Assembly: GCA_977020255.1 (NCBI GenBank)
Contig: CDROCS010000067.1
Coordinates: forward strand, 248,001 to 312,000
Length of the DNA stretch: 64,000 bases
Source of the DNA: Obrimoposthia wandeli
Lineage: Eukaryota
Direction: 5' to 3'
This document shows positions 34,860 to 60,843 of this stretch, in pieces. The translations under genes and the position numbers were made by a program. A model generated the notes under the pieces. The model had not been told where the DNA came from and made no database searches. It saw only the letters and a list, made by a program, of their open reading frames with translations. How positions within the stretch are numbered: the stretch's first letter is position 1; each line of letters begins with the position of its first letter.

Positions 34860-37800
34860 CCTTAACACAACGACGTAGATTTGAATAAATAGCTCGAAGA
34901 GCAGTTATACCTAAGATATATATCCAGAGCAGTGACAAACTCCACTACCATCACAATACATCGACTTAATTAGTCAAAGCTAGATGGACCTAATAAAAGT
35001 ATCAACAGCGCCAGCAAAATTCCTATTAGCAACGGAAAAATACAAAGTTTCGTGTCGGCAACACAGGAAGATCCCAATGAGGAGAATTTGACTTCGGTCC
35101 TTGAGGATTGGGACGGTGTTCCATCGGTTATCCCAACAAATGCAGTCGCAAAACCAACCAGTAACAGTAGAATTTAATGACAAAGATAATTTTAATCATT
35201 TTCTCGATGAGTGGGAGGAAGTCAATCCATCTACTCCCGCTTTCCTTACCACCCGAGAACCCTCCCCCAGAAGAGACTAAGTCATTGCTTAGTTAGATGA
35301 AAGCGAGTGGCGGCTGTTCACTGATGACTAGGACAGACTTACACCATCACCACCTGCTGCTACAACCGTTAACGACATATTGTTGTTGCTGAAGCCGGAT
35401 TTTCAAAAGCTCCAGACATCTGTTAGATGAGCAAGGAGAAGAAATGCTACGAATGAGGAGAAATTATTTATTTAAAACATATGATTTTCAATATATTTTT
35501 AGAAAATCCAACTTGATATAGCCTTATTGGTACCTTCCGTGGGAAGGTAGGTCGAACTGAAGATCAATGTGAGCCAATGTAGCCAGGAGCTTCAGAGGAC
35601 TCAGCTGCAATATCTGGCTTGGTCTGGGCAGCTACAAGTAAATAATTTCATATATGAATAAAACAATTATTGTATTCGGTTCTAGGACAATTACCCGCCG
35701 GACATTTACCCGCCGGACAATTACCCCCCGGACATTTACCCGCCGGACAATTACCCGACTAGGACAAATACCCGCCGGACAAATACCCGCCGGACAATTA
35801 CCCGACTAGGACAATTACCCGCCGGACAATTACCCCCCAAAAAATACAGGGCGAGTTTATGCACTTTTAATATAAACAATAAATTAACATTTTTTACGAA
35901 GAGGAGTAATTTAATTGTATTTATTTATTTAGATTAATTAAATTAGTAAAAAGTTATTAATAAGGGGGTATAAAAACCTAAAAATTGGTTATTATTGGTT
36001 AAATAGGTTATTGAATAAATATTGTTAAGAATACTGGAAGGTAAGAAAAAAACAATTGACATGTGTTTATTTATTTGTATAGTTATTCTTGAATAAGAAC
36101 AATTCTATAACAGTCACATTGATCATCACAGAATCTACATCTGTAGGTTGTGTGCAATACCACAAAGAAAGTCTAAGAATTTTTAAAGTTAATATTAAAA
36201 TGGAAACAAACACACAGCTCATACTTTTATTGACGTTTAAATATACAGTTATAAAAAGTAATTTTAAATATGTAAAAGTAAAAAACTGAATTAAATTAAA
36301 ATAATAATAGTGGTTTAGCAAAATTATACAAATAAATTTTAGGACATGATAATTCGTAATTTTACTTTAATTTGTATTATCTGAAAATAAAAATGAGAAG
36401 TTCAATTAAATGAATTGTAAATATAATAATAATAATTTAAATTAAATCGTCGACATCGTCAAGTTGCCGGAAATCCTCCCGCAATCCCGCAGACTCGTGC
36501 CGAAATTATACTACCTGAAAAGTACAAACGTACACTGGCAGATGAGTATGAGTATGAGCTGTGTGTGTTTGTTTCCATTTTAATATTAACTTTAAAAATT
36601 CTTAGACTTTCTTTGTGGTATTGCACACAACCTACAGATGTAGATTCTGTGATGATCAATGTGACTGTTATAGAATTGTTCTTATTCAAGAATAACTATA
36701 CAAATAAATAAACACATGTCAATTGTTTTTTTCTTACCTTCCAGTATTCTTAACAATATTTATTCAATAACCTATTTAACCAATAATAACCAATTTTTAG
36801 GTTTTTATACCCCCTTATTAATAACTTTTTACTAATTTAATTAATCTAAATAAATAAATACAATTAAATTACTCCTCTTCGTAAAAAATGTTAATTTATT
36901 GTTTATATTAAAAGTGCATAAACTCGCCCTGTATTTTTTGGGGGGTAATTGTCCGGCGGGTAATTGTCCGGCGGGTAATTGTCCTAGTCGGGTAATTGTC
37001 CGGCGGGTAAATGTCCGGGGGGTAATTGTCCGGCGGGTAAATGTCCGGCGGGTAATTGTCCTGTTACCATTGTATTCATAGAGAAACATGATCAAGTACA
37101 TCAACTGCAAGATGAGCTGGGAGAGGATGTACCTATTACACTAACTAGCCAACAGCTACCAGAGGTTCACAAAGCAAAGAAATTGAAGGTGAAGAAGACG
37201 TTCGTGACAACGGAAGTGACGATCGCGATAGAGGATAAACTGCTACACTAGTGGGCAATGGGTTAATCTTTTACGAGAAGATCCCAGTCACTCCATCGAG
37301 CTGTCTCCTTCGCCGACTCGATGACTCCGGGAACCGTCACCATCTGCAGACTTATATCTATCTTGTTGACTCAATGACAGCCAGAATGACCACCAGTAAT
37401 TGGTCAGAGGTCAGCAACTTTGGGCCAGAATCTGATGCAAGCATGACAAGTTACATATACCACACCTCAGATTGCTGTATCAATCAGCCAGAATCTGTAA
37501 CATGGCTGACTCAATGCGGGTTGTAACAAGTTCTTGGCTGAAATGGTAACTCCGCACCCACAACTGCAATTGCAATCGTCACAGTATTATCTTGTTTACT
37601 ATAGGCAACATGGTGCGGTGGTACATCAGCTGGTGCGTGAGAAGCAGCAGAAGAAGTCAAAGGAGAGAAAGAAGCGATCGCCCCAAAAGAAGACGACATC
37701 AAGTCTGTCTACACTGTTTTGTGCCAGCAATTCCTCCTCTCCACAGATAGGTATCATCGGCTTGTGTATCTACGCCATCTGCAGCGACTCTCAAAATTGC

Positions 37801-43534: not shown

Positions 43535-44251
43535 ATGAATACCGTTTTGATGGCGATTTCTAAGAAGTCACAGCTCAAGCCAACCTCAGTCATCGAATAT
43601 TGCGGTATGATGATTGACATTTACAAACAGGAGGTCAGATTAAACGCCACCAAATGGCACACAGCTGATGAGATAATCAACGCAAACCAATACTCCGATG
43701 ATGCAATTGGATTCTTAAATTACGTAAGTAGTGTGCTCCAATGGCCATATGTGGCAAATTATGTTAACCCAGAATTAAGAAAGATCTGTTATAGTATGCT
43801 TAAAAAATATGCGCCAACTTGGAAATGGGCAAAGATCGAGAAAAAGCAAGTTTGGGCGGCAGATGCTACAAAAACAGCGATCGCAGTAACAAAGTTAAAT
43901 CCAGACAGGATCATGTTTACAGATAAACTTAGCCAGGAAAACATTTATCTCCAAGAAGCCAGAGCTTTGCTTATCGCAATGTGGTATGCTAAGAAAGGAG
44001 ACACCATTTTATGCGATAATCTGGGACTAGTTTGGAGTATAAAGAATAGAAGAATCCCAGCAAAGATGAAGCACTGGTGGACAATCATCGCGGTGCAAAT
44101 CCTTGCAGTAATCAAGCAGCTCACGGTACAATTCGTGAGAACTGAATTCAATCCGGCAGACGCACCAACAAGATATGACGCTACAAAAGGGAGAGAAGAG
44201 GAAAATTTGGGCATCGTGCTCTCATTTGAGATGCACCAAGCCATAACGTGA
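43535..44251 (+). CDS. Reverse transcriptase thumb plus RNase H (hepadnavirus-like/DIRS-like), N-terminally truncated
   Basis: KSQLKPTSVIEYCGMMID, AADAT, NIYLQE, CDN and FVRTEFNPADAPTR. Open over 238 aa. Confidence 0.75.
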   Translation: MNTVLMAISKKSQLKPTSVIEYCGMMIDIYKQEVRLNATKWHTADEIINANQYSDDAIGFLNYVSSVLQWPYVANYVNPELRKICYSMLKKYAPTWKWAKIEKKQVWAADATKTAIAVTKLNPDRIMFTDKLSQENIYLQEARALLIAMWYAKKGDTILCDNLGLVWSIKNRRIPAKMKHWWTIIAVQILAVIKQLTVQFVRTEFNPADAPTRYDATKGREEENLGIVLSFEMHQAIT

Positions 44252-47361: not shown

Positions 47362-47640
47362 AGTAGGGGGATGTGAGGTATCAAACACAAAGTAGGTCAT
47401 ACCCCCCCTGCTGAAGTTTTTTTTTTTTTTTTTTGGTGTGAGGTCTCAGACACAAGGTCAATGAAGTCAAGGTCATACCCCCCTGTTTTGTTTTACTGAA
47501 GTGATTTTTGAATTTTTGTTTTACTGAAGTGATTTTTTAAAATTTGAATTTTTGAATTTTTGTTTTACTGAAGTGACTTCTTTTTTTTTTGAATTTTTGA
47601 AATTTGAATTTTTGAATTTTTTATTTTTTATTTTTTATTT
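47362..47640 (+). repeat. Polinton terminal region (TIR candidate) with short direct repeats
   Basis: AGTAGGGGGATGTGAGG start. TGTGAGGT..CACAA..GGTCATACCCCC occurs twice; TTTGTTTTACTGAAGTGA occurs three times. Confidence 0.7.
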
Positions 47641-48182
47641 CAAAAACTTGTGTTTTTAAAATATTATTATTTCTCATGTGAATTTTATAATATTCATGTA
47701 GGTCAACAAATTATTTATTATTTATTTTCAAAAAGTTGAAACTTTATTTTATTTACAAATGTTAGTAGAATATATTTTGTTAATATTGTTTCCTATTTTA
47801 TATGAATATATTTGGTTAATTTAGTTTCCTATGTAAATAATTAATAAGAGAGAGACATTTGAGACAAATATGTATTATAATATCACAAGAGAATCATCCA
47901 AATAAAAAATCAGAGTGTAAAATCACAAAGTCACAAAATAAAAAATCAGAGGGCAAAATCACAAAGTCACAAAATAAATCAGAAGATAAAATCACAAAAG
48001 AATTTATACAATAAAAATAAAATAAATATTACAGATTTATACAATTTGAAAGTATTGATACAATAAAAATAAAAATTTATACAATACAAAGAAAATCACA
48101 TATCAAAGAATGGATTCAATAAAATAAATATCACAAGACAAAGTAATATCACAAATAAAATAACACAAGACAAAGTATTCAT

Positions 48183-51100
48183 TCATTCAATAAAAATATC
48201 ATCGGGATAAAAATGATGTCCATAGGCAACGGATCGGTTCTTCTCTATCCATTTCCTTTTATCATCGGAACTAAATAATGCAATTTTACTGTGCCGTATT
48301 GTGAAAAGCTGATGGTTAAATGATCTCATGCGCTCTTGCTGCACTCGTTCACTTACCCCGCTCTCATATACGGCCAAGTAATTTGCATGACGAAGTTCCG
48401 TCTGCTTTAAACTAACTCCCTTCGCTCTCATATGTCCCCCTCTCTCTGAAGTAGCTAAGCTATAGCACTTTGGACGTAGAAATATCCATTGTGAATAAGT
48501 GCACACCCCCTTACTTTCATCCTTAAACTTCCCTATTTCAGTGTTTGCCAGAGTAAATAGCGGATGATCCACGGGAAATTTCGATGTGTCCAGAAGCCCA
48601 TCAGAAATCATTGCAGGCAACAAGTCAGCTTTAACATTCACATTTTTACAATGAAGGAAAAAGCTATCTGTGTCACCTGCACTTATTCTGATATCACAAC
48701 TAAACTGTTGTCGATATTTCTCGAGTTGAATGTATTGTAACTCATACATCCGCAATTTACTTAGGTCTAATACTGCTTGCCCTATATAACTTGGTCAATC
48801 TAAGACGACATTATCCTGATTTAATAAAACCGCAATGAGATTACTGTCGATTTCAATCGACCTCCGAAATTTGGCTTTGCTACAATAGGTAACGAGTTGA
48901 CTGGAAGTCTGACAAATCCGAAGGTTAATTCTCTTCATGAGATTCTCAATGAGTTTCCCGTAAAGAGAATTAACTTTCAGTTTGTAGTAATCCTTATCGA
49001 AATCTGTTGCAGCTGCAGCCCTCTTAGCCGAATTATCCTTAATATATTGTTCGAAAACATTAGTCTGTGCAAACTTAATTGCTCTATGGACGAAATCTAC
49101 TTTAGCCCCAAGGCTAACGTACATTTGAAGCAATCTTGAATGCACAACATAATGTTTCTTGGGGTAATGTGTTAGCAATAACTTTTCAGTTTTGCTTCCT
49201 AGAGGGCATTCATTTCGCGGAGCTAAGGGGAGATCATCTAATTTATTGTGAAGCTCATTCGGGATAGATAAATATATTTCCAAAAGATGAGCGTAACTAC
49301 TTTTAGAGAGGTCAATACTCGCGAAGGAAGTTAATATGGAGTCGAGTTCTACCCGATCCGTTACCCATGAAAATTCCCCATAAGGTAAAAATTGAGACAT
49401 TGCCCACCCATACAAGTTGTTCACGTCAATATATAGTAGTTCCGAACCTGGTCCCGCATCCGTCTTGTGCGTATTGACGAAGGTCATTCCTCCTCGAATA
49501 CCCTCGCGGAACATCTGGTACATCTCCGGGTCCTGTATGAGCTCGACTCTGATGGGAGCAGGAATCGGAGACGCAGGAGTCGGAGTAGACGATATGGTGA
49601 TCGGAGACGCAGGAGTAGAGGTTATGGTGATCGGAGTAGTTGGAATCCGAGAAGGTACTGAATTGACCTCTGGAATAAGCAGCGACTTGAACGCGCTAGC
49701 GAAAGTCAAGCCTGAAATGGAAATAATTATTATTAATAATAACAAAGACAAAAAGTTGCAAATAGTTGCAATAATTTTAAATATTTGCAAAAAGATGCAT
49801 TTATGATGCAAAAACATGAATTATGCTAAAATAATAATTCTTACCGGGTATACTGAAGAAGTTCAGAGGCTCCAGCCCATCGTCAGAGAGAGCCTTGAGC
49901 CGGAAAGCCGTGAAGACGTCAGCGAGCAGATACACGTCCATCTTCATGTAGATGAGCATGTAGTCCCATAGGGACGTGCACCCACTCTGAAGCCACATCT
50001 GCTCGGCTAACTGGTATTGGGCTGGAGTTATCATCGTATCCCAGATAGGAGGAAGGGACGTGATGGCGCGGAGAGCAGTCTCTGACACAGCCATATTATA
50101 AGGGAAGATGCCTTTGCCGCTGACAAGATGCGGTGGGAAGACAGAATGGGTCAAAGGCGTAACTCCCGAAAGTGAAACCAAGTTTGCGAGACCGGAATTC
50201 AAAAACTGCATTGAATCAATGAAGCGAATACAGATCCCCTTGATATATACCATTAATACCTGGAATTTCTCTGTGGATTGAGGGATCACAGAGATACTCC
50301 AATGCGGAAACTTAGAAATCGCATGTTTCAGTATATGGTGCATATCATATCCCCGTAAATTATGGAAAATTACGGGGAAGATCCTATTCAGCCTCCTTGA
50401 TAAATTACATTTTGAATGCGCGGCCCCGAGAAATTTTCCAGTCATATGGTCATGATCACGGACCTTATTGACTAGGCTCTTCTTGCACAGGTAACAGATA
50501 GTCGCTGCATTGAAGGCGACAATCTGTACGTCTGTGAGAGGGCGCATCACCTCAGCCGCGTGATTCCTGTACCAAGGAAGTACAACCGAAGTTGCCAAGA
50601 CCTCCAACTTCTTAAGGAAGTCCACGATACACAATTCTCCCGTGAATTCTGTGTAGTCGTGTGAAAAGTTACCGGTAGCCGAAATCGGAGTCATGAGCAT
50701 CCCCACAGAAATAGGGAGATGGATTTGGTGACACAGCTTCGAAATCAGCATACACAGCAAAAGGAGGAGAAATGGTTTTTGCGAAATCCGTAAATTCAAT
50801 ATATTTATTAGTGGGCATTGAATAAAGAGTCGTATGATCTTTATTCATTGTACACCTAGGAACGTGCTTATCAAAGCTAGTTTGTCGTCGGAATCCGTGT
50901 AGACATTTATAGCACCATATGCTCTGAACACGAGTTCCGACAACATTTCTGTTCTAGTAATTCATAAATGTATTGAAATTCGTGATTGCCGCATAATGAT
51001 TTTCCACATCATTCTCAATAAGCAGAAGATTGATGGGCCTAGCGTCAGGATTTGTAGTGCGGTAAACCACATCTACAAAAGGATTTTTAAAAATCTCCTG

Positions 51101-52755
51101 ATTTGGCGATGGTGTCAAACCAAAACTATTGAACGTGAATACGTTGATTGAGAGAGAAGGATTCTCTCTCTCGAATCTCGGTATGTTCAATAGCCGCATA
51201 GGCATATCAGAAAGGTCATAATTTAACCTATCGAGCAGATCATCATATTGACCTGCTCGCTGAGGATTTACAGGGAATAAGCCCCTAAAAAGAATAGCCA
51301 GAATGCTATATATAAAACAAAGCGGGCCAGTATTCTGTACATTCACAATGCAGTGAGAATACCGTAACCCGTATGGCGTAGGAATATACCCGCTTCCTTG
51401 GAGTCTATTAATGATAGTTGTCCTAGTGACAATAAAGAGATCTCCAGGAAACGGTTTATTCGCCAATTACTTGCGTTTTTGGAGTACGTCTCGATTTTCT
51501 GATTAAGGGAATCAATCCCATTAGAAATAAAATCTGACTCTGAGAAAGGTAGAGCCACATTCGAGATGTTCCAGGGTCTTCTATCAGAATCATTTATGAA
51601 TTCGACATGGACCCCGAACTGTACTTTGCAAGTCGCAAATTTACGTACAGACTCCCTTAACGCTGACAAAAGTGAAGTAGGTACAGACAGATCAGTCATA
51701 TTATCACTGGAAACATCCAGCGAAATAGTGACGATACTACCACCTAAACCAGTATGGGACCCCACATTCCCCGTAGCCCGCTTCGAGGAGGATGAACCCG
51801 AAGTTGGGTTTCCTTGCCTCTTACGAGTACCAATGACCGGCAACGAACTAGTGGAGGGTATCGCACTATTCGGTGACGGACCATTAGTAGAGGAATGTGC
51901 ACCAGTAGAAACGGGAGGCAAATTACCCGCTCCCACTTGCACTATGGAAGAAATAGCAATGAGGCCAGAGCCCGAAGGTGTAATAAAACTGGGCATTGAG
52001 CTAGAAAAATTGCTCATAGAGCCAGATACATTGCTCATAGAGCTAGTTACATTGCTCATAGAGCTAGACAAATTGCTCGTTGAGCCAGAGCACGAAGGCA
52101 TAACAAAACTGCTCGTAGAGGCAGAAACAAAACTGCTCGTAGAGGCAGGAACAAAACTGGGCATAGAGCCAGAGCCCGAAGGCATAACAAAACTGCTCAT
52201 AGAGGCAGAAACTTGGCCCGAAGCCCCATCCGAAACTTGGCCCGAAGCCCCATCACATACTTGGCCCGAAGCCGCATATTCATCTTCTTCTTCTTCTGCT
52301 CCATTATTGCTCCATTCATCTATTATCTCGAACTCTTCGGTCTGCATATCATCATCGCTGATCATCTGCATATCAACATCTTCATTGTCATCGCTGATGA
52401 TGATGGTAGAATGATGAGCAGCAGCAACTGGGGCAGATACTGGAACAGTAGCAGAAATTGGACCAGCAACCCGAGAAATAGTAGCAGATCTATTCTGAAA
52501 GATGGCCTTCTTGCCACGTTGCTGGAAATGACGAAGATGGACACGATGACGCGCCACAAACTCCGACCAATCAATATCCTCCGCGGAGAGACATACTGGA
52601 CATACGTAGAATTTTTGTCCGTTGAACTTCTGTCCAAAGTAGCTCTTCATTTTTCCGTCACATTCCTTGTGACTCTCCTCGAAGCATAATTCTTTGTTCA
52701 TATTGCAATTCTAGAAAGAAATAAATTAGCAGAAAAATAACAATAAAATTACCAT
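48183..52755 (-). pseudogene. Protein-primed family B DNA polymerase, spliced (introns 52711-52752 and 49712-49844), with nonsense and frameshift lesions
   Basis: NVQN..CFIYSIL, YADFEA (ExoI), CYLC..RDHDH..CNL, FHNLRGYD, YIDVNNLYG, KLKVNSLYGK, GDTDS, LRPKCY. TGA at 48795-48797, TAG at 50954-50956, frameshifts near 51430 and 50720. Confidence 0.93.
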
Positions 52756-52802
52756 TTTCAATTTCGTTTATAATAGGGGATTATTTGTTGATTGATGCTT
52801 GC

Positions 52803-52809
52803 TTATATA
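52803..52809 (-). promoter_or_regulatory. TATA box upstream of pPolB, with CCAAT at about 52832
   Basis: GTATATAAG on the minus strand about 48 bp before the ATG at 52755. Confidence 0.55.
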
Positions 52810-52886
52810 CTATTTTCAAGCTAGTATTAAGCCAATCAGATTTATTCATTATTTAAACCAACCAGATTAATTTAAAACAGAATAGT

Positions 52887-53396
52887 TTACTGACAGATGT
52901 GAGTAGTTGAATTTTCATTAATATTTAAATAATCCAAACTAGCTGCAAAGCATTTCTTGTATGCACAATGCTCGCCATGTTTAATATATGGACAATTGAT
53001 ATTTGATGGATTTAATTGTTTTAATGTTTTCCAGTAATTTATCACTCTAAATTCAGGAAAATATTTATTGATTGTCTTTATTTTAGCTCCATTATTTTCA
53101 TCCAAAACATAGAAAATTGATTTGGATACATCACAACAACGTTTTATTTTCTCAGTTATTTCTTGTATCTTGAAATAACTATTACCATCAACTAGTTTTA
53201 GTCGATGGTAATGCTTAATGAGATATCTATTTATTTTTCGTGATTTTCTATTCATAATGTCCCATATGGGTTGCATTTTAAAAACATAATGTTTAGGATA
53301 GAAGATTGCATCCACATCCAATATACATAGTTATATTATTACAAATTCAGTATTATTATCAATAAAAGCTTCAAAATCAATAAAATAAACAGACAT
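52887..53396 (-). pseudogene. Polinton accessory DEDD-like protein with one in-frame TAA (53331-53333)
   Basis: MSVYFIDFEAF..II*LCILD, then HYHRL..DG and a C-terminal CPYIKHGEHCA. Confidence 0.75.
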
Positions 53397-53433
53397 TTTT
53401 TATAGCAATAATTTTATTTGATATTGTTTATAT

Positions 53434-53811
53434 CTATTGTTTATGCTTTAACCAAAGCAGACAGAGTTGTCCACATGACTGTGTTAAAACATTTTGATAA
53501 TGTTTCTTACTAAAATGTACTTTCTTTCCAGAATCAAATACTGTAGATACTAATTTAGAAGGGTAATATATCCCAAAGGGGTCAAAAACAAAGATTTCAT
53601 TTTCATTAACATGTATTGCAATCCAATGTTCACCACGCAAATTAGATGAATGTGTATTGATTACATATCCACCTAGTCGAGTCAAAGAGGGGATGTGATC
53701 AAGGCTGTAGACTCCATTGAAACGCGAACCGAGTAGTTTTCTTCCGCTTTTTGTTATCTCGTCCGAACTAGAATATATATTAATTAATAAATTCAAACTG
53801 ACTTACTTCAT
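53434..53811 (-). CDS. Adenain-like cysteine protease, spliced (intron 53768-53806)
   Basis: Spliced N-terminus MNSDEIT. Catalytic motifs GEHWIA, FDPFG and YQ..TQSCGQLC. Confidence 0.92.
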
Positions 53812-53842
53812 TTATATATCTTCTTTATTGTTTTCATTCTGT

Positions 53843-55065
53843 TTATACTAGTACTGTTCCTCCCTTGGTAATTTGAACCTCAGAATCGAATACTCCATAG
53901 ATTATAATATTAGTAGGGTGTTCAAGTGCTTTTGAAAACTTGATTTCTACTTTCAAATTTCCCTGTTTAGGGATTTGAGCTTGATTAATATCGAAATCAG
54001 GAGAGAGAACAAATGTGAACAGTGTATACTTGTCCTTGAAATCAGTCATTGAAATTCCAATATTAGCATCCTTATCCAAATGACCAAGATTTCTAATTAA
54101 AGATTGCACATATGAAAACACATAATCATCGTTTTCAAAGTCATTCGTATAAGATTCTTGATAATCAATATTTCGTGCAAGTTTAATTGATTCATGTGTC
54201 CAAATTGAGAAACCTCATTTTTAGACTCACCTCCATAGGTAGACGTGTTTTGGAAAGCAATTAAAACAAAGTTTGGAAGTTGCATATCACCAAAAATCTG
54301 ATCCTTGTAATAAGATAGTGCTCCCGTAGGGATAGCGTGAGAAACAAGATTAGTTTTTCTAATAGGATAACATGCATTTTGCTTCTCCAACCCCATTCGA
54401 TGTGCAACAAGTACAGATGGTTCCACCTTTACTCGTCGAACCAGCAGTTTTGCTTCCGTAATCTCAATTGCGGTTTTAATAGTATCAGCGCAAACAACAC
54501 TAAAACCTACTGGATTTCTTTTCATTCGAATATGTGCACTTACACCGGGTAAAAGATACTTTGGTTGCTTAAAGAAATCCAAATGAAGACTCCCACAAAG
54601 TGACAATACTTTAGACTTTGCAATCGAAGCAATTCTTCTTTTTTCATCATTGTCAAACCCAATTGCATCAAGATTAATCAATTTCGTATCATTACCGTAA
54701 TTCAACAATGTTTCAATCATTGCTTTATGGGTGTAACTAGTATTATTTCCTTCAACTTTCACATTATTGAGACTGAGAATCACATCCTTGAAAAGAGTAT
54801 GCAACATGTAATTAGCTGATTTGATATCCATACCATCATCCAAATCACCTCCACCTTCCTTTGTAACTTTCAATTTAACGAGAAATAAACTATCATTCAA
54901 ATCAAGATATTGAGTATTGGATCCATTAATATTGAATTCTAAATCCGGAGAAGATGTCCCGTTAACCGTATTTGTCGGAAATATTTCTTCAAAACTAGCA
55001 CTATCAACCACAACCTGAGGTATAGGTTTATCGAATATACACAATTCAGTTTTAGCACAACTCAT
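53843..55065 (-). pseudogene. Double jelly-roll major capsid protein with a frameshift near 54180
   Basis: MSCAKTELCIFD..., LHLDFFKQPKYLLPGV, YTLFTFVLSPD, GNLKVEIKF. The two ORFs join after FGHMN. Confidence 0.9.
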
Positions 55066-55427
55066 TACTTAAAAATTGTTCCACCTAGTTTCAAACGTTT
55101 GTTTATACCCGATGCTTTAGATGTTTTCTTACGTTTATAACCACTTCCCTTTTGAGTTTTCTTTTTCAAAAATTCAGCTAGACTTGGTGAAATTTCATTC
55201 ACCTGATCCAAGGCTGCATCCTTTAGTGTAGGAAGAAATTTCTCATCACCAGACAAGTATTTTGATCCAACATTAGCAATAAATTTCCCGAGTCGCTTGA
55301 GTAGTGGGAAAGCAAAGCGACCAAAAACCTTCATCCATCCTGATCCATACTGTTTTCCGGCAAAATAAGGCAAATCACCTCCTTGCATCGGTTTACTATA
55401 CGCATCGATTATACTTGAATCAATCAT
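55065..55427 (-). CDS. Small basic virion core/precursor protein with adenain-type GG/GSG sites
   Basis: MQGGD, QYGSGWMKVFGRFAFPLL and QKGSG. Located between penton and MCP, as in Polintons. Confidence 0.8.
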   Translation of the reverse strand: MIDSSIIDAYSKPMQGGDLPYFAGKQYGSGWMKVFGRFAFPLLKRLGKFIANVGSKYLSGDEKFLPTLKDAALDQVNEISPSLAEFLKKKTQKGSGYKRKKTSKASGINKRLKLGGTIFK

Positions 55428-56452
55428 ATTTTTCTAAAATGTATTGTTAAACTTGTTTTAGCTCCAAATGAAAATTTAATTAATCTTCCTGAATCATCCC
55501 GAATGTTAACTTCAATATTGTTTATAGAAGAAGAACTCACAGGAATATACATTGGATTTTCAATTGGGATATGTATAATATCTCCATACTTGTGCTTTTC
55601 CTGTTGAACCCAAATAGATTTTATTAATGGAAGTTTATTTCCACCCACAAATATCGGTTCAGTAATACTTGTGTAAATATAAATCTGATTATACGCATTA
55701 CTTAGCTTTGCCCGATTAGATGCTCGGAAAACTTTATTAAGATTTTTAAAACTGTTTTCATTGAATCCTATAATTGTAGCTAAATTTTTATCCATATTTA
55801 TTTCTTTTACATGTGGTTTCAATTTAAACTCAATTATCTCCTTTTTAACATAAAAGCTTTCAAATATATTATCAATATTTTTCATAAAATATTGACAAAG
55901 ACTTTCAACATTGGAAAATAAGCAATCATTTTCGAATGCATACTGCTCACGTACATCCTCTTGATTATAATGATGCATCTTTAACTTTAATGTCGGTAAA
56001 TCATATATTTGATTTGGTAATTCCGATTCATAAAACATACTTTCAATAGGAGCTTCTTTCATACCGTAACTTAATGCTAAACTTTTATTATCAATTTCTA
56101 AATTGAAAGCTTGTCTCGTAGTGCGAGTTATACAAATTTTGTTTTCGCCGCTAAGGTAAATAACATATTTACTATTAATTGGCGTTAAATACTTGACGAA
56201 AAATGCTCCATGTTTCATTTTCACACCAGCTTTAACTTCAGTTTTTATTCTTTTCTCCACAACATAATCTATAATTGACCCTCCTTTAATGGATAGAGGA
56301 GAGTAATTGAAAGAAAATTCCGTCAGAGCAGCTTCCCAATGCCCAGGTAAATTGATTGAGCTTTGATAATCAATACTAAAACTATTAGCAGTATTATTCG
56401 GCTGAGTTAATGGTGAACCATTACTTGGTAAAACAACATACATTGAGTTCAT
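55424..56452 (-). CDS. Penton (minor capsid protein)
   Basis: YVVLPSN, WEAALTEFSF, IYIYTSITEP, YIPV..INNIEVNIRDDSG. ATG at 56452 overlaps the integrase stop. Confidence 0.9.
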   Translation of the reverse strand: MNSMYVVLPSNGSPLTQPNNTANSFSIDYQSSINLPGHWEAALTEFSFNYSPLSIKGGSIIDYVVEKRIKTEVKAGVKMKHGAFFVKYLTPINSKYVIYLSGENKICITRTTRQAFNLEIDNKSLALSYGMKEAPIESMFYESELPNQIYDLPTLKLKMHHYNQEDVREQYAFENDCLFSNVESLCQYFMKNIDNIFESFYVKKEIIEFKLKPHVKEINMDKNLATIIGFNENSFKNLNKVFRASNRAKLSNAYNQIYIYTSITEPIFVGGNKLPLIKSIWVQQEKHKYGDIIHIPIENPMYIPVSSSSINNIEVNIRDDSGRLIKFSFGAKTSLTIHFRKI

Positions 56453-57477
56453 TCTATTTGAGAAGCTAATATCCAACTAGGTTCAGTATATCCATGCCAC
56501 TTAACATGATATTGTTTATGCTTTCCTCTACCTTTTGTCTCTAAGATTTCTTGAATTCTGTATACTCTAGGCTTTGATGGTAATACTTGTAGTTCTTCAT
56601 GATAAAACTTTCCTGCAATTTCATTATTGGTTTCATCCTCAATGAAATACATTACCGGCACACGTTTATTATCAATTTTAGTTATACGAAATACTTCATC
56701 GCTCCAATTCTCTTTGAAATTCTTTATAAAAGGAGTAGTACTAATTTGAGAAATACGTACATAATCACCAACTTTATACTTGGGTTTCCGCGCAACTTGA
56801 CTTTGGTTACGGCGTTGCCAAATTTCCATAGCATTCTCATCTGTAACATCAACAGGTCTCTTTCGGTCTAATGATGAGTGTTCACTATGATTGTATGCAT
56901 GTATTATTTGAGGTAAAACAGTAACCCATGACTTATTTCCCTGCTTTGTGAAATACTTTTTCAAACGATCTCTCAATGTTCGATTAAAACGTTCAACTAA
57001 AGCGGCTTTATATTGGGAAAATACTGAGTAATGATTAATATTATGTTTTTTCAATAGTGTTTCAACATGTTTATTATAAAACTCCTTTCCACTATCCGTT
57101 TGGAAATTTCTTGGTTTTATTTCTTTAATCAAAAGCTTCATTGCGGTTAAAACATCGGTACCAGACTTAGACTTTAATGGAATGGCTCGCGCGAATCTGC
57201 TAAAGACATCAACACAAGTTAAAATATATCGATATCCGTTGTTAATACTAGCATACGGAATCATTTCCATCAAATCTGCTTGCCATAAATCATTCGGGCC
57301 GCTCGTTTTGTATGATCTCGTTGGGAACCGACGTCTCATTGGTTTGTTTAAGCTGTAAGCTAATTGATTTCTCAACCACGCCTGAGTTTCCTGCTTTGTC
57401 TTCTTTGACTCTTTTGCTAATTTTGAAACCCCTGTGTAACCAACGGGGTGACTTGGATTGAACCATATTTTCTCCAT
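56449..57477 (-). CDS. Retroviral-like (rve) integrase with C-terminal chromodomain
   Basis: WQADL, CVDVFSRF, QTDSGKEF, ALVERFNRTL, then YRIQEIL..YHVKWHGY. Confidence 0.96.
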   Translation of the reverse strand: MEKIWFNPSHPVGYTGVSKLAKESKKTKQETQAWLRNQLAYSLNKPMRRRFPTRSYKTSGPNDLWQADLMEMIPYASINNGYRYILTCVDVFSRFARAIPLKSKSGTDVLTAMKLLIKEIKPRNFQTDSGKEFYNKHVETLLKKHNINHYSVFSQYKAALVERFNRTLRDRLKKYFTKQGNKSWVTVLPQIIHAYNHSEHSSLDRKRPVDVTDENAMEIWQRRNQSQVARKPKYKVGDYVRISQISTTPFIKNFKENWSDEVFRITKIDNKRVPVMYFIEDETNNEIAGKFYHEELQVLPSKPRVYRIQEILETKGRGKHKQYHVKWHGYTEPSWILASQIE

Positions 57478-57580
57478 TGCAGCAAGATGATTTGATTTTT
57501 AAATTGAATTTAGGAATAGATGGAAGTGATCCCATATATAAATTCATATTATTATTGATTCGAATTATGCTTATAATCAT
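57290..57580 (-). CDS. Small hypothetical protein overlapping the integrase 5' end
   Basis: ATG overlaps the upstream stop (ATGA). Contains MGSLPS and KIKSSCC. Confidence 0.35.
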   Translation of the reverse strand: MIISIIRINNNMNLYMGSLPSIPKFNLKIKSSCCNGENMVQSKSPRWLHRGFKISKRVKEDKAGNSGVVEKSISLQLKQTNETSVPNEIIQNERPE

Positions 57581-57782
57581 CGGTTTATTAGTCTACTAGC
57601 AAGTGCACCAACTATTGAGCTAATAATTGGTACGAGAAATCCTAAAAATCCACCACTTTGCTTATAAAGCAACTTACGTTTACCGATTCGTATTTGGGAT
57701 GAAACAAAGCAAGTAGAGGTTTCTTATGTCGATTCATGTTAGCCTTGACAATTATTTTACCAGAAACTATTTTCTGTATCAT
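57577..57782 (-). pseudogene. Small Polinton QxGGF protein (amphipathic virion-protein precursor) with a 1-nt frameshift near 57685
   Basis: MIQKIVSGKIIV..RHKKPLLAL, then RKLLYKQSGGFLGFLVPIISSIVGALAS. Length of 206 nt is one short of a full frame. Confidence 0.7.
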
Positions 57783-57997
57783 ATTAAGTAATCATCAATT
57801 ACAAAAGTAGGGAATGATTTAAGAATAGCTGGGCGGCGAATAGCAGGTGCACGCATGAGAGAATTGAAATAGGCAATACTCCTAGATTTCTTAACAACAG
57901 TTCTTTTAGATTTTTGAGCAACCATTTTCCTTGCACTTAAAACTGATTTAATCAATTTTTTAACTTCGGGTTTAACAGTTTCCTTTTTAAAATTCAT
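57779..57997 (-). CDS. Small Lys/Arg-rich protein (possible DNA-condensing protein)
   Basis: 72-aa ORF with ATGA overlaps at both ends. Confidence 0.55.
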   Translation of the reverse strand: MNFKKETVKPEVKKLIKSVLSARKMVAQKSKRTVVKKSRSIAYFNSLMRAPAIRRPAILKSFPTFVIDDYLI

Positions 57998-58644
57998 CTT
58001 CTCAAAACTGGTTTCTTTGTTTGTTTATAAACGGTTATTCCCGATGGATTGAATACATCAGTTCTAACTCTAAAGTCATCGGGACAATCTTGAGTAAAAT
58101 CAATAAAAATGTATCCATGAGGAATAGTAGTTGCATCTTGAAATGAATCAATTAAAAACTTTCTATTATTCGGGTAAGCTTGTCTTGAAACAAAATCAAC
58201 AACCGTCTGATCACGTGGATTCTTGAAGAGAACAAGGTAATGTACATTTAAATTACGAGTTCTATGGTTCCCTCCTTGATGAAATAGATTTTGTGTGATG
58301 AAAATAACAGTTACTTCTCGATGTCGTCCTATTTTAGTGAATAAATTATTGAAATCACTCTCTTTATTTGCTTCTTGATACAGATCATCAATAACAATAA
58401 CATCATGTCGTTGTAATCGCTCAGACCAATTATCATCGAATCCATTAATGACTTTTATATTTTTGATTTTCTTAAACTCTTTACTGGTTAAACCAGCTTC
58501 TCCATCTCCTCCCTGATGCCAGTATATTTTATTAAACTTAAAACTAAAGTATTTATTATTTTGCAGTAGTTTACATACAAAATGTGTTTTCCCACTACCA
58601 CTAGGACCTACAATCTGAAAAACTGAATTATTTTTTAAGTTCAT
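57994..58644 (-). CDS. A32/FtsK-like DNA packaging ATPase
   Basis: GPSGSGKT, VIVIDDL, TQNLF, LFKNPRD. Confidence 0.95.
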   Translation of the reverse strand: MNLKNNSVFQIVGPSGSGKTHFVCKLLQNNKYFSFKFNKIYWHQGGDGEAGLTSKEFKKIKNIKVINGFDDNWSERLQRHDVIVIDDLYQEANKESDFNNLFTKIGRHREVTVIFITQNLFHQGGNHRTRNLNVHYLVLFKNPRDQTVVDFVSRQAYPNNRKFLIDSFQDATTIPHGYIFIDFTQDCPDDFRVRTDVFNPSGITVYKQTKKPVLRR

Positions 58645-58687
58645 ATTAAAAATATTAGATTATCGGGATAATGTTTATAAGACAAAA

Positions 58688-58969
58688 CTATTTAAAATAT
58701 TTTATTACGAAACATCCAGCAACTAACAATAAAAAACTCTTCTCGTAGAAAAAGCTCCTTTTCTCTTCTTTGTTTGCGAGTTTCTTCTGATTGTATCCCT
58801 GAATGAGAAGATTGACTGCCTTGTCGTGCACCATTCTTCTTACGTGCTCTTCCAGGGGTAGATTTGAGACATCAATGAGTTGCAGAACATCTGGTTCTAT
58901 GACATTCTTCGAGATGAAGCTCTTCACCGCCTTGTCAACATCTTGCTTGAAATAGTTTGGAGTAGACAT
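58688..58969 (-). CDS. Hypothetical 93-aa accessory protein
   Basis: ATG at 58969 (MSTPNYF), with GTATATAAG at 59003-59011. Confidence 0.55.
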   Translation of the reverse strand: MSTPNYFKQDVDKAVKSFISKNVIEPDVLQLIDVSNLPLEEHVRRMVHDKAVNLLIQGYNQKKLANKEEKRSFFYEKSFLLLVAGCFVIKYFK

Positions 58970-59044
58970 AATGATGATGATGAAGAAGTAAAAAGTAATC
59001 TGCTTATATACTATACATCTGAAATCTGATTGGTTAATAAATAC

Positions 59045-59135
59045 ACTGACTAATAAAGACACTAAAGACACTGACTAATAAAGACACTAAAGACACTAAA
59101 GACACTGACTAATAAAGACACTAAAGACACTGATT
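59045..59135. repeat. Short tandem array (GACTAATAAAGACACTAAAGACACT-like) upstream of the 93-aa gene promoter
   Basis: Read directly from the sequence; 3-4 imperfect units. Confidence 0.85.
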
Positions 59136-59156
59136 AAAGATAAAGACGAATAAAAT

Positions 59157-59879
59157 TTACACATGATAACGATTAAAAATACGTATTTGATGAAGCATAG
59201 CTTCATTAGGAGCAGCAATAGTCCGTTTAGCTTTAACAAGATTCGAAGCAGCAGTAACACCAATCGAATGAGATAAAAATGCAATAACAATACAAGCAGC
59301 ATGTAAACTACCATAATGACCACATACTAAAATCTTACCACCATTTTCGATAGTTTCTTTAATTATATTATTAGTCTGTTTATAATACTTCATTATTGTT
59401 TCTCCTAATTTTGAGTTTACAAAGACAGAAGTATATTTTAATTTCTTATAAGATATTTTATCCAGTATAGATGTATTGATTACATGAGTGAAATTGGAAT
59501 TCAAAAGATTAGTTTCATCAAACCCATCTCGATAATTACCAATATATAATTGATTTACTAAAATCTCACTCATCGCTGTTTTGTTTAACTTTTCTACATT
59601 AAGTTGAGTAAATCTAGCACTAAACAAACTATCAAAAAGATGGGTCATGTGGTTCATTTCCATACTCGAAGCATGAGCTATTATGGGTTCCATAAAAGCC
59701 AAAGCATTTAAAAAATCTATCCGTCTCTTATCTTCAATAATTGGATCTATAATAATTTCTTCTTCTATCGTCACTTCATCAATAGTTTCTTCTCTTCTTA
59801 TAACTGTTGTTGTTGTTGCTGGTAGTGATGATGTTGCTGGCGATGATGTTGCTTCTGGTGCTGAATTGATTTTCTCCAT
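59157..59879 (-). CDS. Dual-specificity phosphatase-fold protein with a degenerate catalytic loop
   Basis: LYIGNY, FTHVINTS, GGKILVCGHYGSLHAACIVIAFL, VKAKRTIAAPNEAMLHQI. TATATAA at 59906-59912. Confidence 0.85.
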   Translation of the reverse strand: MEKINSAPEATSSPATSSLPATTTTVIRREETIDEVTIEEEIIIDPIIEDKRRIDFLNALAFMEPIIAHASSMEMNHMTHLFDSLFSARFTQLNVEKLNKTAMSEILVNQLYIGNYRDGFDETNLLNSNFTHVINTSILDKISYKKLKYTSVFVNSKLGETIMKYYKQTNNIIKETIENGGKILVCGHYGSLHAACIVIAFLSHSIGVTAASNLVKAKRTIAAPNEAMLHQIRIFNRYHV

Positions 59880-59929
59880 TTTATCAATTCCGACTCAATT
59901 TAGTCTTATATATTAAACAAGGTTAGATT

Positions 59930-60156
59930 TCATTGGAGCATCAGTTTCATCATATGATTTGATTGGAGTATTATTCAACCTTTCCATTGTACTTAACATC
60001 TCATGTAAATGTAGTTGATGACGTAACCTAAAGAGTTAAATAAACTACATATAAATATTACTCATGATTATTTTTCCTAATTAAAGCATTGAGAATAACT
60101 GAAGCAAGATCTTTTAATGCATCCTGAACCTCTTTACATTCAATAATTTCATCCAT
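59930..60156 (-). CDS. Candidate spliced 63-aa ORF (intron 60028-60061)
   Basis: MDEIIECKEVQDALKDLASVILNALIRKNNHE|LRHQLHLHEMLSTMERL...; the unspliced frame stops at GAG TAA. Confidence 0.4.
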
Positions 60157-60284
60157 TTTATGATAAAGCAAATCAAATATTGTTTATAACCCATGAAAAA
60201 TCTATTTTTAGACCACATTACAACTATTTGCAACTATTTGCAAGTAATGACATGTGATGTCTTTGTCTTAGTATAAACAATATT

Positions 60285-60843
60285 TTGATAATGATTTTAT
60301 TGAAAATGGATAATCAAAATAATCAAAATAATGAAAGTAGAGCTAGTACATACATAGGTTCCGGTAGTAATTTATTTTCTAATATGAATTATAATAGAAA
60401 TAATCAGAGAGAAAATATTAATCCATCAAGTCAAACAATAACAAGTCCTACGCGAGTAACCGAAGAACGTGAGTCCTTTAAGGATAGGACTAATACTAGA
60501 CGATAAACAAGAATGTTAACCAATTGAGACTAATCGACCAATTAGAATCGAGCATTAGAGGATAAACAATTGAATATTTCAATTTATAATTATCAATATG
60601 AATTTCGAAAAGCTATATCAACCTATGCATACATATTATGGATATGAGATGCACTTTTTGAAGAAAGCTCATAACTATAATTTTATTTTTCCTGTCAACA
60701 TCGAGCCGCTTAAATTTGATTTTGAAATATTAAATTTGACTTCTGTGGATAAAGAGAGAATCAATATTCTCTTGTCTCAATTCGGAATCAACTATGCGCT
60801 TCAGGAAAACAAAATCGTAAGCACTTTAAATTGCACACAATAA
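60285..60843 (+). pseudogene. Divergent accessory gene or genes of the Polinton, probably frameshifted
   Basis: Two short ORFs (73 and 81 aa) downstream of GTATAAA. Function not recognised. Confidence 0.3.

Follow-up and report, generated by a model that had tools for sequence, protein, structure and literature searches.

Does the protease gene of an animal Polinton begin with a spliceosomal intron? The question is raised by a stretch of 64,000 nucleotides of Obrimoposthia wandeli DNA (assembly GCA_977020255.1, contig CDROCS010000067.1, positions 248,001 to 312,000), called the window below, whose minus strand reads ATG at 53811-53809, then AA, GTAAGT from 53806, TTCTAG ending at 53768, and T-TCG-GAC. 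An earlier note on this DNA had taken the 39 nt from GTAAGT to TTCTAG for an intron, and its coordinates, length and minus-strand reading all match the window sequence. The note started from the premise that Polinton core genes are described as uninterrupted. This agrees with accounts of intact vertebrate Mavericks, whose genes lack introns (PMC8097293), and of Caenorhabditis elements, in which core genes are intron-less and cargo genes have introns (10.1101/2022.07.12.499685). Spliceosomal introns are not mentioned in the accessible parts of 10.1101/2023.08.22.554363 and PMC8502044, and those of PMC6431247, PMC5718144, PMC10294476, 10.64898/2026.07.28.741278 and 10.1101/2022.07.28.501842 contained nothing further on introns in core genes. 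The open literature yielded no description of a spliceosomal intron that is conserved in the protease gene of an animal Polinton; subscription papers, Repbase entries and supplements may contain one.

The element and its host

The segment lies within an element bounded on one side by a terminal repeat at 47362 and reaching at least as far as 60823. Its genes are all on the minus strand, in the order phosphatase-like gene, small ORFs, A32 ATPase, rve integrase, likely minor capsid protein, major capsid protein, protease, an ORF of unknown nature and polymerase. The polymerase gene (48183..52710), broken in the window copy, is matched by Pfam DNA_pol_B_2 on two pieces (E 2e-8 and 1e-15), as expected of a protein-primed family B polymerase. 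The integrase (56449..57477) is of the retroviral type (Pfam rve, E 4e-14) with a chromo-like C-terminal part, and the packaging ATPase (57994..58644) is of the A32 type (Pfam Pox_A32, E 9e-7). The major capsid protein gene (53843..55065) had no Pfam match and is assigned as double jelly-roll-like from Atlas features (0.97 to DJR-like clusters). The gene at 55424..56452 is likely to encode the minor capsid protein, judging by its position and size; its Atlas neighbours (0.97) are unnamed and mostly Preplasmiviricota proteins, with recognition below threshold. The terminal inverted repeat end (47362..47400, plus strand) starts with AGTAG. Among the sister copies, both terminal repeats were found in four pairs, two of which have a perfect 6-bp target-site duplication. 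The element is a member of the Polinton/Maverick group, sharing with animal Mavericks/Polintons the polymerase, the rve integrase, the A32 ATPase, the adenain-type protease, the capsid, the AGTAG-type repeats and the 6-bp target-site duplication.

The window copy is broken in its capsid gene, its polymerase gene and one end. The capsid frameshift near 54190 is confined to this copy, being absent from 29 of 29 sister loci, and the second terminal repeat is missing, the likeness to sister copies ending at 60823. An accessory dual-specificity-phosphatase-like gene (59157..59879, minus strand; Pfam DSPc, E 5e-13) is present in some sister copies and in a second family of the same genome (family B, below), and is missing or replaced in others. 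Two minor-capsid-like genes stand in tandem in loci L143 and L144. Elsewhere in the window, a 1.4-kb element at 35670-37077, in which terminal tandem units of 15 nt accompany a perfect inverted repeat of 408 nt, is likely a non-autonomous DNA transposon, and a 238-codon ORF at 43535-44251 (plus strand), with a weak match to the C-terminal, RNase H-like domain of hepadnavirus-type polymerases (E 0.003), is likely a piece of a retroelement.

The assembly measures 1.35 Gb. In its multi-copy cox1, AAA stands for Asn, ATA for Ile and TGA for Trp, an assignment that we take to be the flatworm/echinoderm mitochondrial code; this code and the low GC content make a flatworm the likely host. Numerous bacterial contigs are also part of the assembly, as is a second cox1 of animal type that uses another code. 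Candidate introns in host chaperonin genes, identified by frame joining only, measure 41, 69, 85 and 90 nt.

The segment at the start of the protease gene

The 39-nt segment (53768..53806, minus strand) is 82% AT, has GT...AG ends and lies in phase 2 within codon 2. It separates a first exon consisting of ATG and two bases of codon 2 (53807..53811), delimited from the sequence and from the spacing to the upstream motif TATAAACA, from a second exon of 110 codons plus stop (53434..53767). Read without removal, the frame is M-K-stop, and beyond the stop it crosses the remainder of the segment into SDEITKSGRKLLGSRFNGVYSLD...; removal yields an M-N-S start, as in intron-less relatives, ahead of the 110-aa adenain-type domain. 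Both translations given in the earlier note, ATG AAG TAA unspliced and an MNS start spliced, agree with the sequence. Since the donor is in phase 2 and its own bases form the stop, unspliced RNA would give no protease. The predicted splice sites match the U2 type, GTAAGT...TTCTAG in the window and GTAAG, GTAAT or GTGAG with TAG, CAG or AAG in relatives. An upstream ATG at 53837 was rejected as a start codon: it opens a frame of 9 codons whose stop overlaps the protease ATG, it is missing in other families, and it probably lies ahead of the transcription start.

The identity of the second exon as a protease of the adenain (peptidase C5) type is supported by Pfam, PDB, motifs and dN/dS. The kinship with adenovirus proteases that the note expected of the spliced protein was borne out by a Pfam Peptidase_C5 match of the 110 aa after the acceptor, above the cut-off in a profile search, and by matches to adenovirus proteases in PDB (E 2e-4 each). 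The motifs containing the catalytic His (GEHW), Asp (VFDP) and Gln/Cys (Q..SCG) are invariant in 5 of 5 aligned relatives. In six of eight between-family pairs the dN/dS of exon 2 is 0.15-0.24, which indicates purifying selection; dS is saturated in the other two.

The segment is a standard feature of the family. A tight genome-wide pattern that requires a donor, 25-45 nt and an acceptor matched 1,616 copies (control 0); the earlier note had proposed to look for the intron in sister copies. According to that note, sister copies with an open, intron-less frame would mark the segment as a one-off insertion; clean copies of this kind numbered zero among 292 loci, and zero genome-wide with a pattern for short or absent gaps, whose two matches are both imprecise deletions that retain the donor. 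Open frames of 112 aa in some sister loci, considered as cases of intron loss, proved to be due to point changes within the intron. About 26,000 first-look protease candidates in the genome, together with the 1,616 exact sites of the window's family (family A), suggest a very large Polinton load.

Of 84 family-A loci, 82 have the segment at this codon (38-51 nt, duplicates included). Three further families of the same genome, reached using distant relatives as queries, have it as well: family B (79% identity) in 22 of 25 loci (37 nt), family C (90% identity) in its single locus (39 nt) and family D (63% identity) in 29 of 30 loci (38 nt). In these three families and in the metagenome carriers described below, the segment has the same position, a length of 37-43 nt and GT...AG ends and differs in sequence. 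The pattern fails in 6 of 140 own-genome loci, five having lost the ATG, donor or acceptor and one being shifted by a frameshift.

Beyond this genome, 79 metagenome loci drawn from the best 80 of 193 matches were compared. Ten of them carry the segment, at 45-56% protein identity, with lengths of 37, 38, 39, 41 or 43 nt and from six independent lineages, and 58 start directly with an in-frame ATG, mostly as M-N-T or M-D-S; eight are degraded or unclassified and three are cut by a contig edge. Among these best 80 of 193 matches, carriers are all at 45% identity or above and direct starts all at 40% or below. In family D and in the intron-less relatives the protease ATG overlaps the capsid stop codon. 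The pattern had 102 matches in viral contigs, none of them a relative.

The arrangement is far from what chance would give. In all of the ten lineages compared, the pattern ATG-NN-GT(20-60)AG-N ends precisely ahead of the first codon of the protease. It is found in none of the ten at ten codon offsets upstream and five downstream, and in 3, 3 and 1 of them at offsets +6, +7 and +9; its frequency is 0.1-0.4% in shuffles of those 70 nt and 0.2-0.9% at random places of the same loci. The read-through stop falls at codon 2 or 3 in nine lineages (L087 left out). What is conserved is the ATG, the GT, the AG and a single phase; what varies is the inner sequence and the length, not by multiples of three. 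Removal of the segment regains the homologous frame at a constant position throughout this variation.

In a tree of the neighbouring capsid protein, the product of an independent gene, with 28 rows left from 53 after thinning of near-copies, the eight intron-bearing rows fall on one side of a branch with 100/100 support; family C had no usable row. With a root set at the midpoint, and thus not inferred, the carriers are nested among intron-less rows. A quick protease tree recovered the same clade with support of 78. As the carriers form one clade of the capsid tree, a single old gain is the simplest reading: the intron would have been acquired a single time, by the clade's ancestor, and the segment would be older than the split of at least ten lineages. 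Conserved position and phase, varying length and inner sequence, intron-less outgroups and the single capsid-tree clade together strongly favour the spliceosomal intron proposed in the earlier note and make it very likely, as far as sequences can tell, that the 39-nt segment is one.

Further candidate introns of the polymerase

Scanned strictly over its full 13.5 kb, the element's minus strand yields three candidates, namely the protease segment and two in the polymerase gene. The first of these (52711..52752, minus strand) is a GT-AG intron of 42 nt in phase 0, directly after the ATG at the polymerase 5' end. It was found in 61 of 65 matching sites (duplicates not removed), with lengths of 42 or 43 nt and three donor variants, and families B and D have ATG-proximal segments at the corresponding place. 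The second (49712..49844, minus strand) is a GT-AG intron of 133 nt in phase 1, within the Gly codon of FFSIP-G-LTF. It measures 120-147 nt in eight copies of the family-A type and 139-140 nt in family B, where its sequence is unrelated. Its donor is lost in one B copy, and three donor-bearing copies have no acceptor within 330 nt. It is absent, with a contiguous frame, from family D (L273, L277 and L278), from L144 and L149 and from six distant loci. Since family D and these other loci lack it, the protease intron would be the oldest of the three and the internal polymerase intron a later gain. In sequence, the protease intron and the two polymerase introns are unlike one another, and all copies of the protease intron that were observed sit in protease context.

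A possible fourth intron of about 34 nt (about 60027-60060, minus strand), in a small ORF starting at 60156, is outside the strict-scan candidates; its sequence is identical in three sister copies. In L280, L285, L286 and L287 a family-A protease is combined with a polymerase of a different type (about 79% identity, another donor and a longer intron), which would represent module swapping between families. The polymerase of family D, L144 and L149 is encoded on the opposite strand.

Splicing as a proposed gate on the maturation protease

Upstream of the protease, the motif TATAAACA (53840..53847, minus strand) overlaps the capsid stop codon and is predicted, from its spacing to the ATG, to be a late-gene promoter motif. 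It has eight matches on the coding strand of the element, one on the other strand and six on the same strand in 50 kb outside. Six of the eight lie 32-42 nt upstream of an ATG, the protease ATG being at 36 nt. The motif precedes the protease ATG by 33-34 nt in L141, L144 and L147, and was not found ahead of it in L149. Within 47362-60823, TATATAAG lies upstream of the phosphatase-like gene, a 93-codon ORF and the polymerase, and TATAAACA upstream of the morphogenesis genes. This division suggests that the two motifs may mark early and late gene classes, and TATAAACA could be a late promoter for the host RNA polymerase II.

The best explanation of the data as a whole, which we consider very likely on these comparisons, is that a GT-AG micro-intron is fixed throughout the clade and would have to be removed by the host spliceosome before any protease can be made. 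In the nucleus, transcription by the host RNA polymerase II would start from a TATAAACA promoter that belongs to the protease gene itself and lies about 36 nt upstream. This would place the intron a few bases from the cap, and the intron would be recognized by intron definition, as is the case with flatworm micro-introns. Unspliced RNA would yield a Met-Lys dipeptide only, and splicing would thereby act on the maturation protease as a gate of the all-or-none kind. After the single gain in the clade ancestor, further polymerase introns would have been added in sub-lineages. The intron may have been retained since a cap-proximal intron could help the mRNA pass as a host transcript, favouring export, expression and escape from silencing, and since a DNA-replicating element has no reverse-transcription step by which an intron could be cleanly removed. 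Silencing of intron-less RNA of the HUSH type is described in human cells (PMC8770142); the capsid, ATPase and integrase genes of the element have no intron, which makes a general anti-silencing need less likely. As the earlier note suggested, the protease intron may tie virion production to host splicing, in a family that is not known to form virions and whose window copy is broken.

The strongest alternative likewise accepts a real intron and differs from this explanation in purpose only. The intron would be neutral baggage, acquired by chance, kept since its clean loss is impossible and devoid of any regulatory role. We consider this a serious contender whose chances are somewhat below even. 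A phase-2 donor of GTAA or GTGA would by itself account for the in-frame stop, the length and inner sequence of the intron drift, and the occurrence of the internal polymerase intron in families A and B and not in D gives the gains a sporadic look; however, the protease intron has persisted in lineages between which synonymous sites are saturated, and two of the three introns lie at most 5 nt from an ATG, which looks non-random.

Two accounts that give the local intron no part, or a secondary one, are both improbable. If the segment were never spliced, the protease would have to start at a non-AUG or downstream codon in or after the AT-rich segment, the GT...AG ends being a leftover. The window frame is indeed open for 12 codons ahead of exon 2 and contains TTG, ATT and ATA codons, and automatic gene callers start the relatives P0001-P0005, P0007, P0010 and P0012 at such codons; the odd N-termini of P0001-P0154, taken as protein sequences, amount to a hint only. 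The open stretch is not conserved, however: in family D and some A copies it is closed by stops lying 2-6 codons upstream of exon 2. The ATG, GT and AG are conserved, the spacing between them differing by 1, 2, 4 or 6 nt, and the M-N-S/T start of the outgroups is regained solely by removal. Equally slim are the chances that the AG serves mainly as an acceptor for upstream leaders, through adenovirus-like alternative splicing or trans-splicing of a long late transcript, the local ATG-donor being secondary. The adenovirus protease mRNA does arise from a leader spliced to the L3 acceptor (PMC7851563), and trans-splicing occurs in flatworms (PMC6530080), but a start codon is missing from exon 2 itself, so that the ATG must come from a phase-2 donor, and the local ATG-NN-GT is kept in 10 of 10 lineages together with a promoter-like motif of its own. 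That the segment is a disabling insertion in a protease pseudogene carried by non-infectious copies can hardly be upheld: the window copy is broken elsewhere, many copies are decaying and the six failing own-genome loci would fit, but the frame of exon 2 is open and shows purifying selection when families are compared, its catalytic motifs are invariant and the segment appears to predate the split of at least ten lineages.

The preferred reading, a micro-intron removed by the host, places the element beside several known systems. Flatworm micro-introns, whose lengths peak at 37 bp and which are concentrated around transcription starts (PMC6530080), resemble the protease intron in being about 37 nt long, AT-rich, equipped with near-consensus splice sites and close to the transcription start; they are known from host genes of flukes and other flatworms and not from a virus-like element. 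The protease intron fits them in size, and at 37-43 nt is slightly below the short-intron peak of 45-85 bp in Schmidtea (PMC13594981). Adenoviruses, a related virus group, also use the host spliceosome and have an intron just past the start codon of a morphogenesis gene, the first four residues of IVa2 being on exon 1 (PMC7851563). Their L3-23K protease is reached via a spliced leader and its coding sequence is not split by an intron (PMC7851563); adenoviruses do not integrate, and homology of their intron positions to that of the Polinton protease is not claimed. Spliceosomal-type introns inside Polinton-like elements are represented by the eupolintoviral introners of dinoflagellates, which are young, repeated insertions, mostly post-integration and mostly outside coding regions (PMC12166617), unlike the protease intron, which is old, restricted to a single site in a core gene and common to lineages at 45-90% protein identity. 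Polinton-like viruses of protists also contain introns, but these are self-splicing group I introns of 309-376 bp, located in a small gene that precedes the one for the capsid (PMC12220804). In the vertebrate and Caenorhabditis elements introns are limited to host-derived cargo (PMC8097293; 10.1101/2022.07.12.499685), whereas here fixed GT-AG introns lie in the protease and the polymerase.

The finding breaks the working rule that the core genes of animal Polintons are intron-less. Since this rule is used for calling elements intact, ORF-based surveys will mis-start or discard members of the clade, and automatic gene calls of relatives do begin inside the intron. A fixed, long-conserved intron implies that the protease would be transcribed in the host nucleus and would still be required; if, by analogy with adenoviruses, it is needed solely for particle maturation, the intron would lend indirect support to a virion stage. 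The introns would also provide a dated series of gains in a virus-like genome, with the protease first and the polymerase later, and the splice junction is a DNA-free marker by which the expression of morphogenesis genes in animal Polintons becomes testable by plain RT-PCR. A more far-reaching possibility, rather unlikely as judged from these genomes, is that an infectious, flatworm-associated polintovirus lineage with host-style micro-introns uses the start-codon intron as a regulated switch of its maturation protease. In that case intron retention would stop integrated copies from maturing particles and splicing would license them, and the junction would be an RNA marker of the late, particle-forming phase, which has never been observed in animal Polintons.
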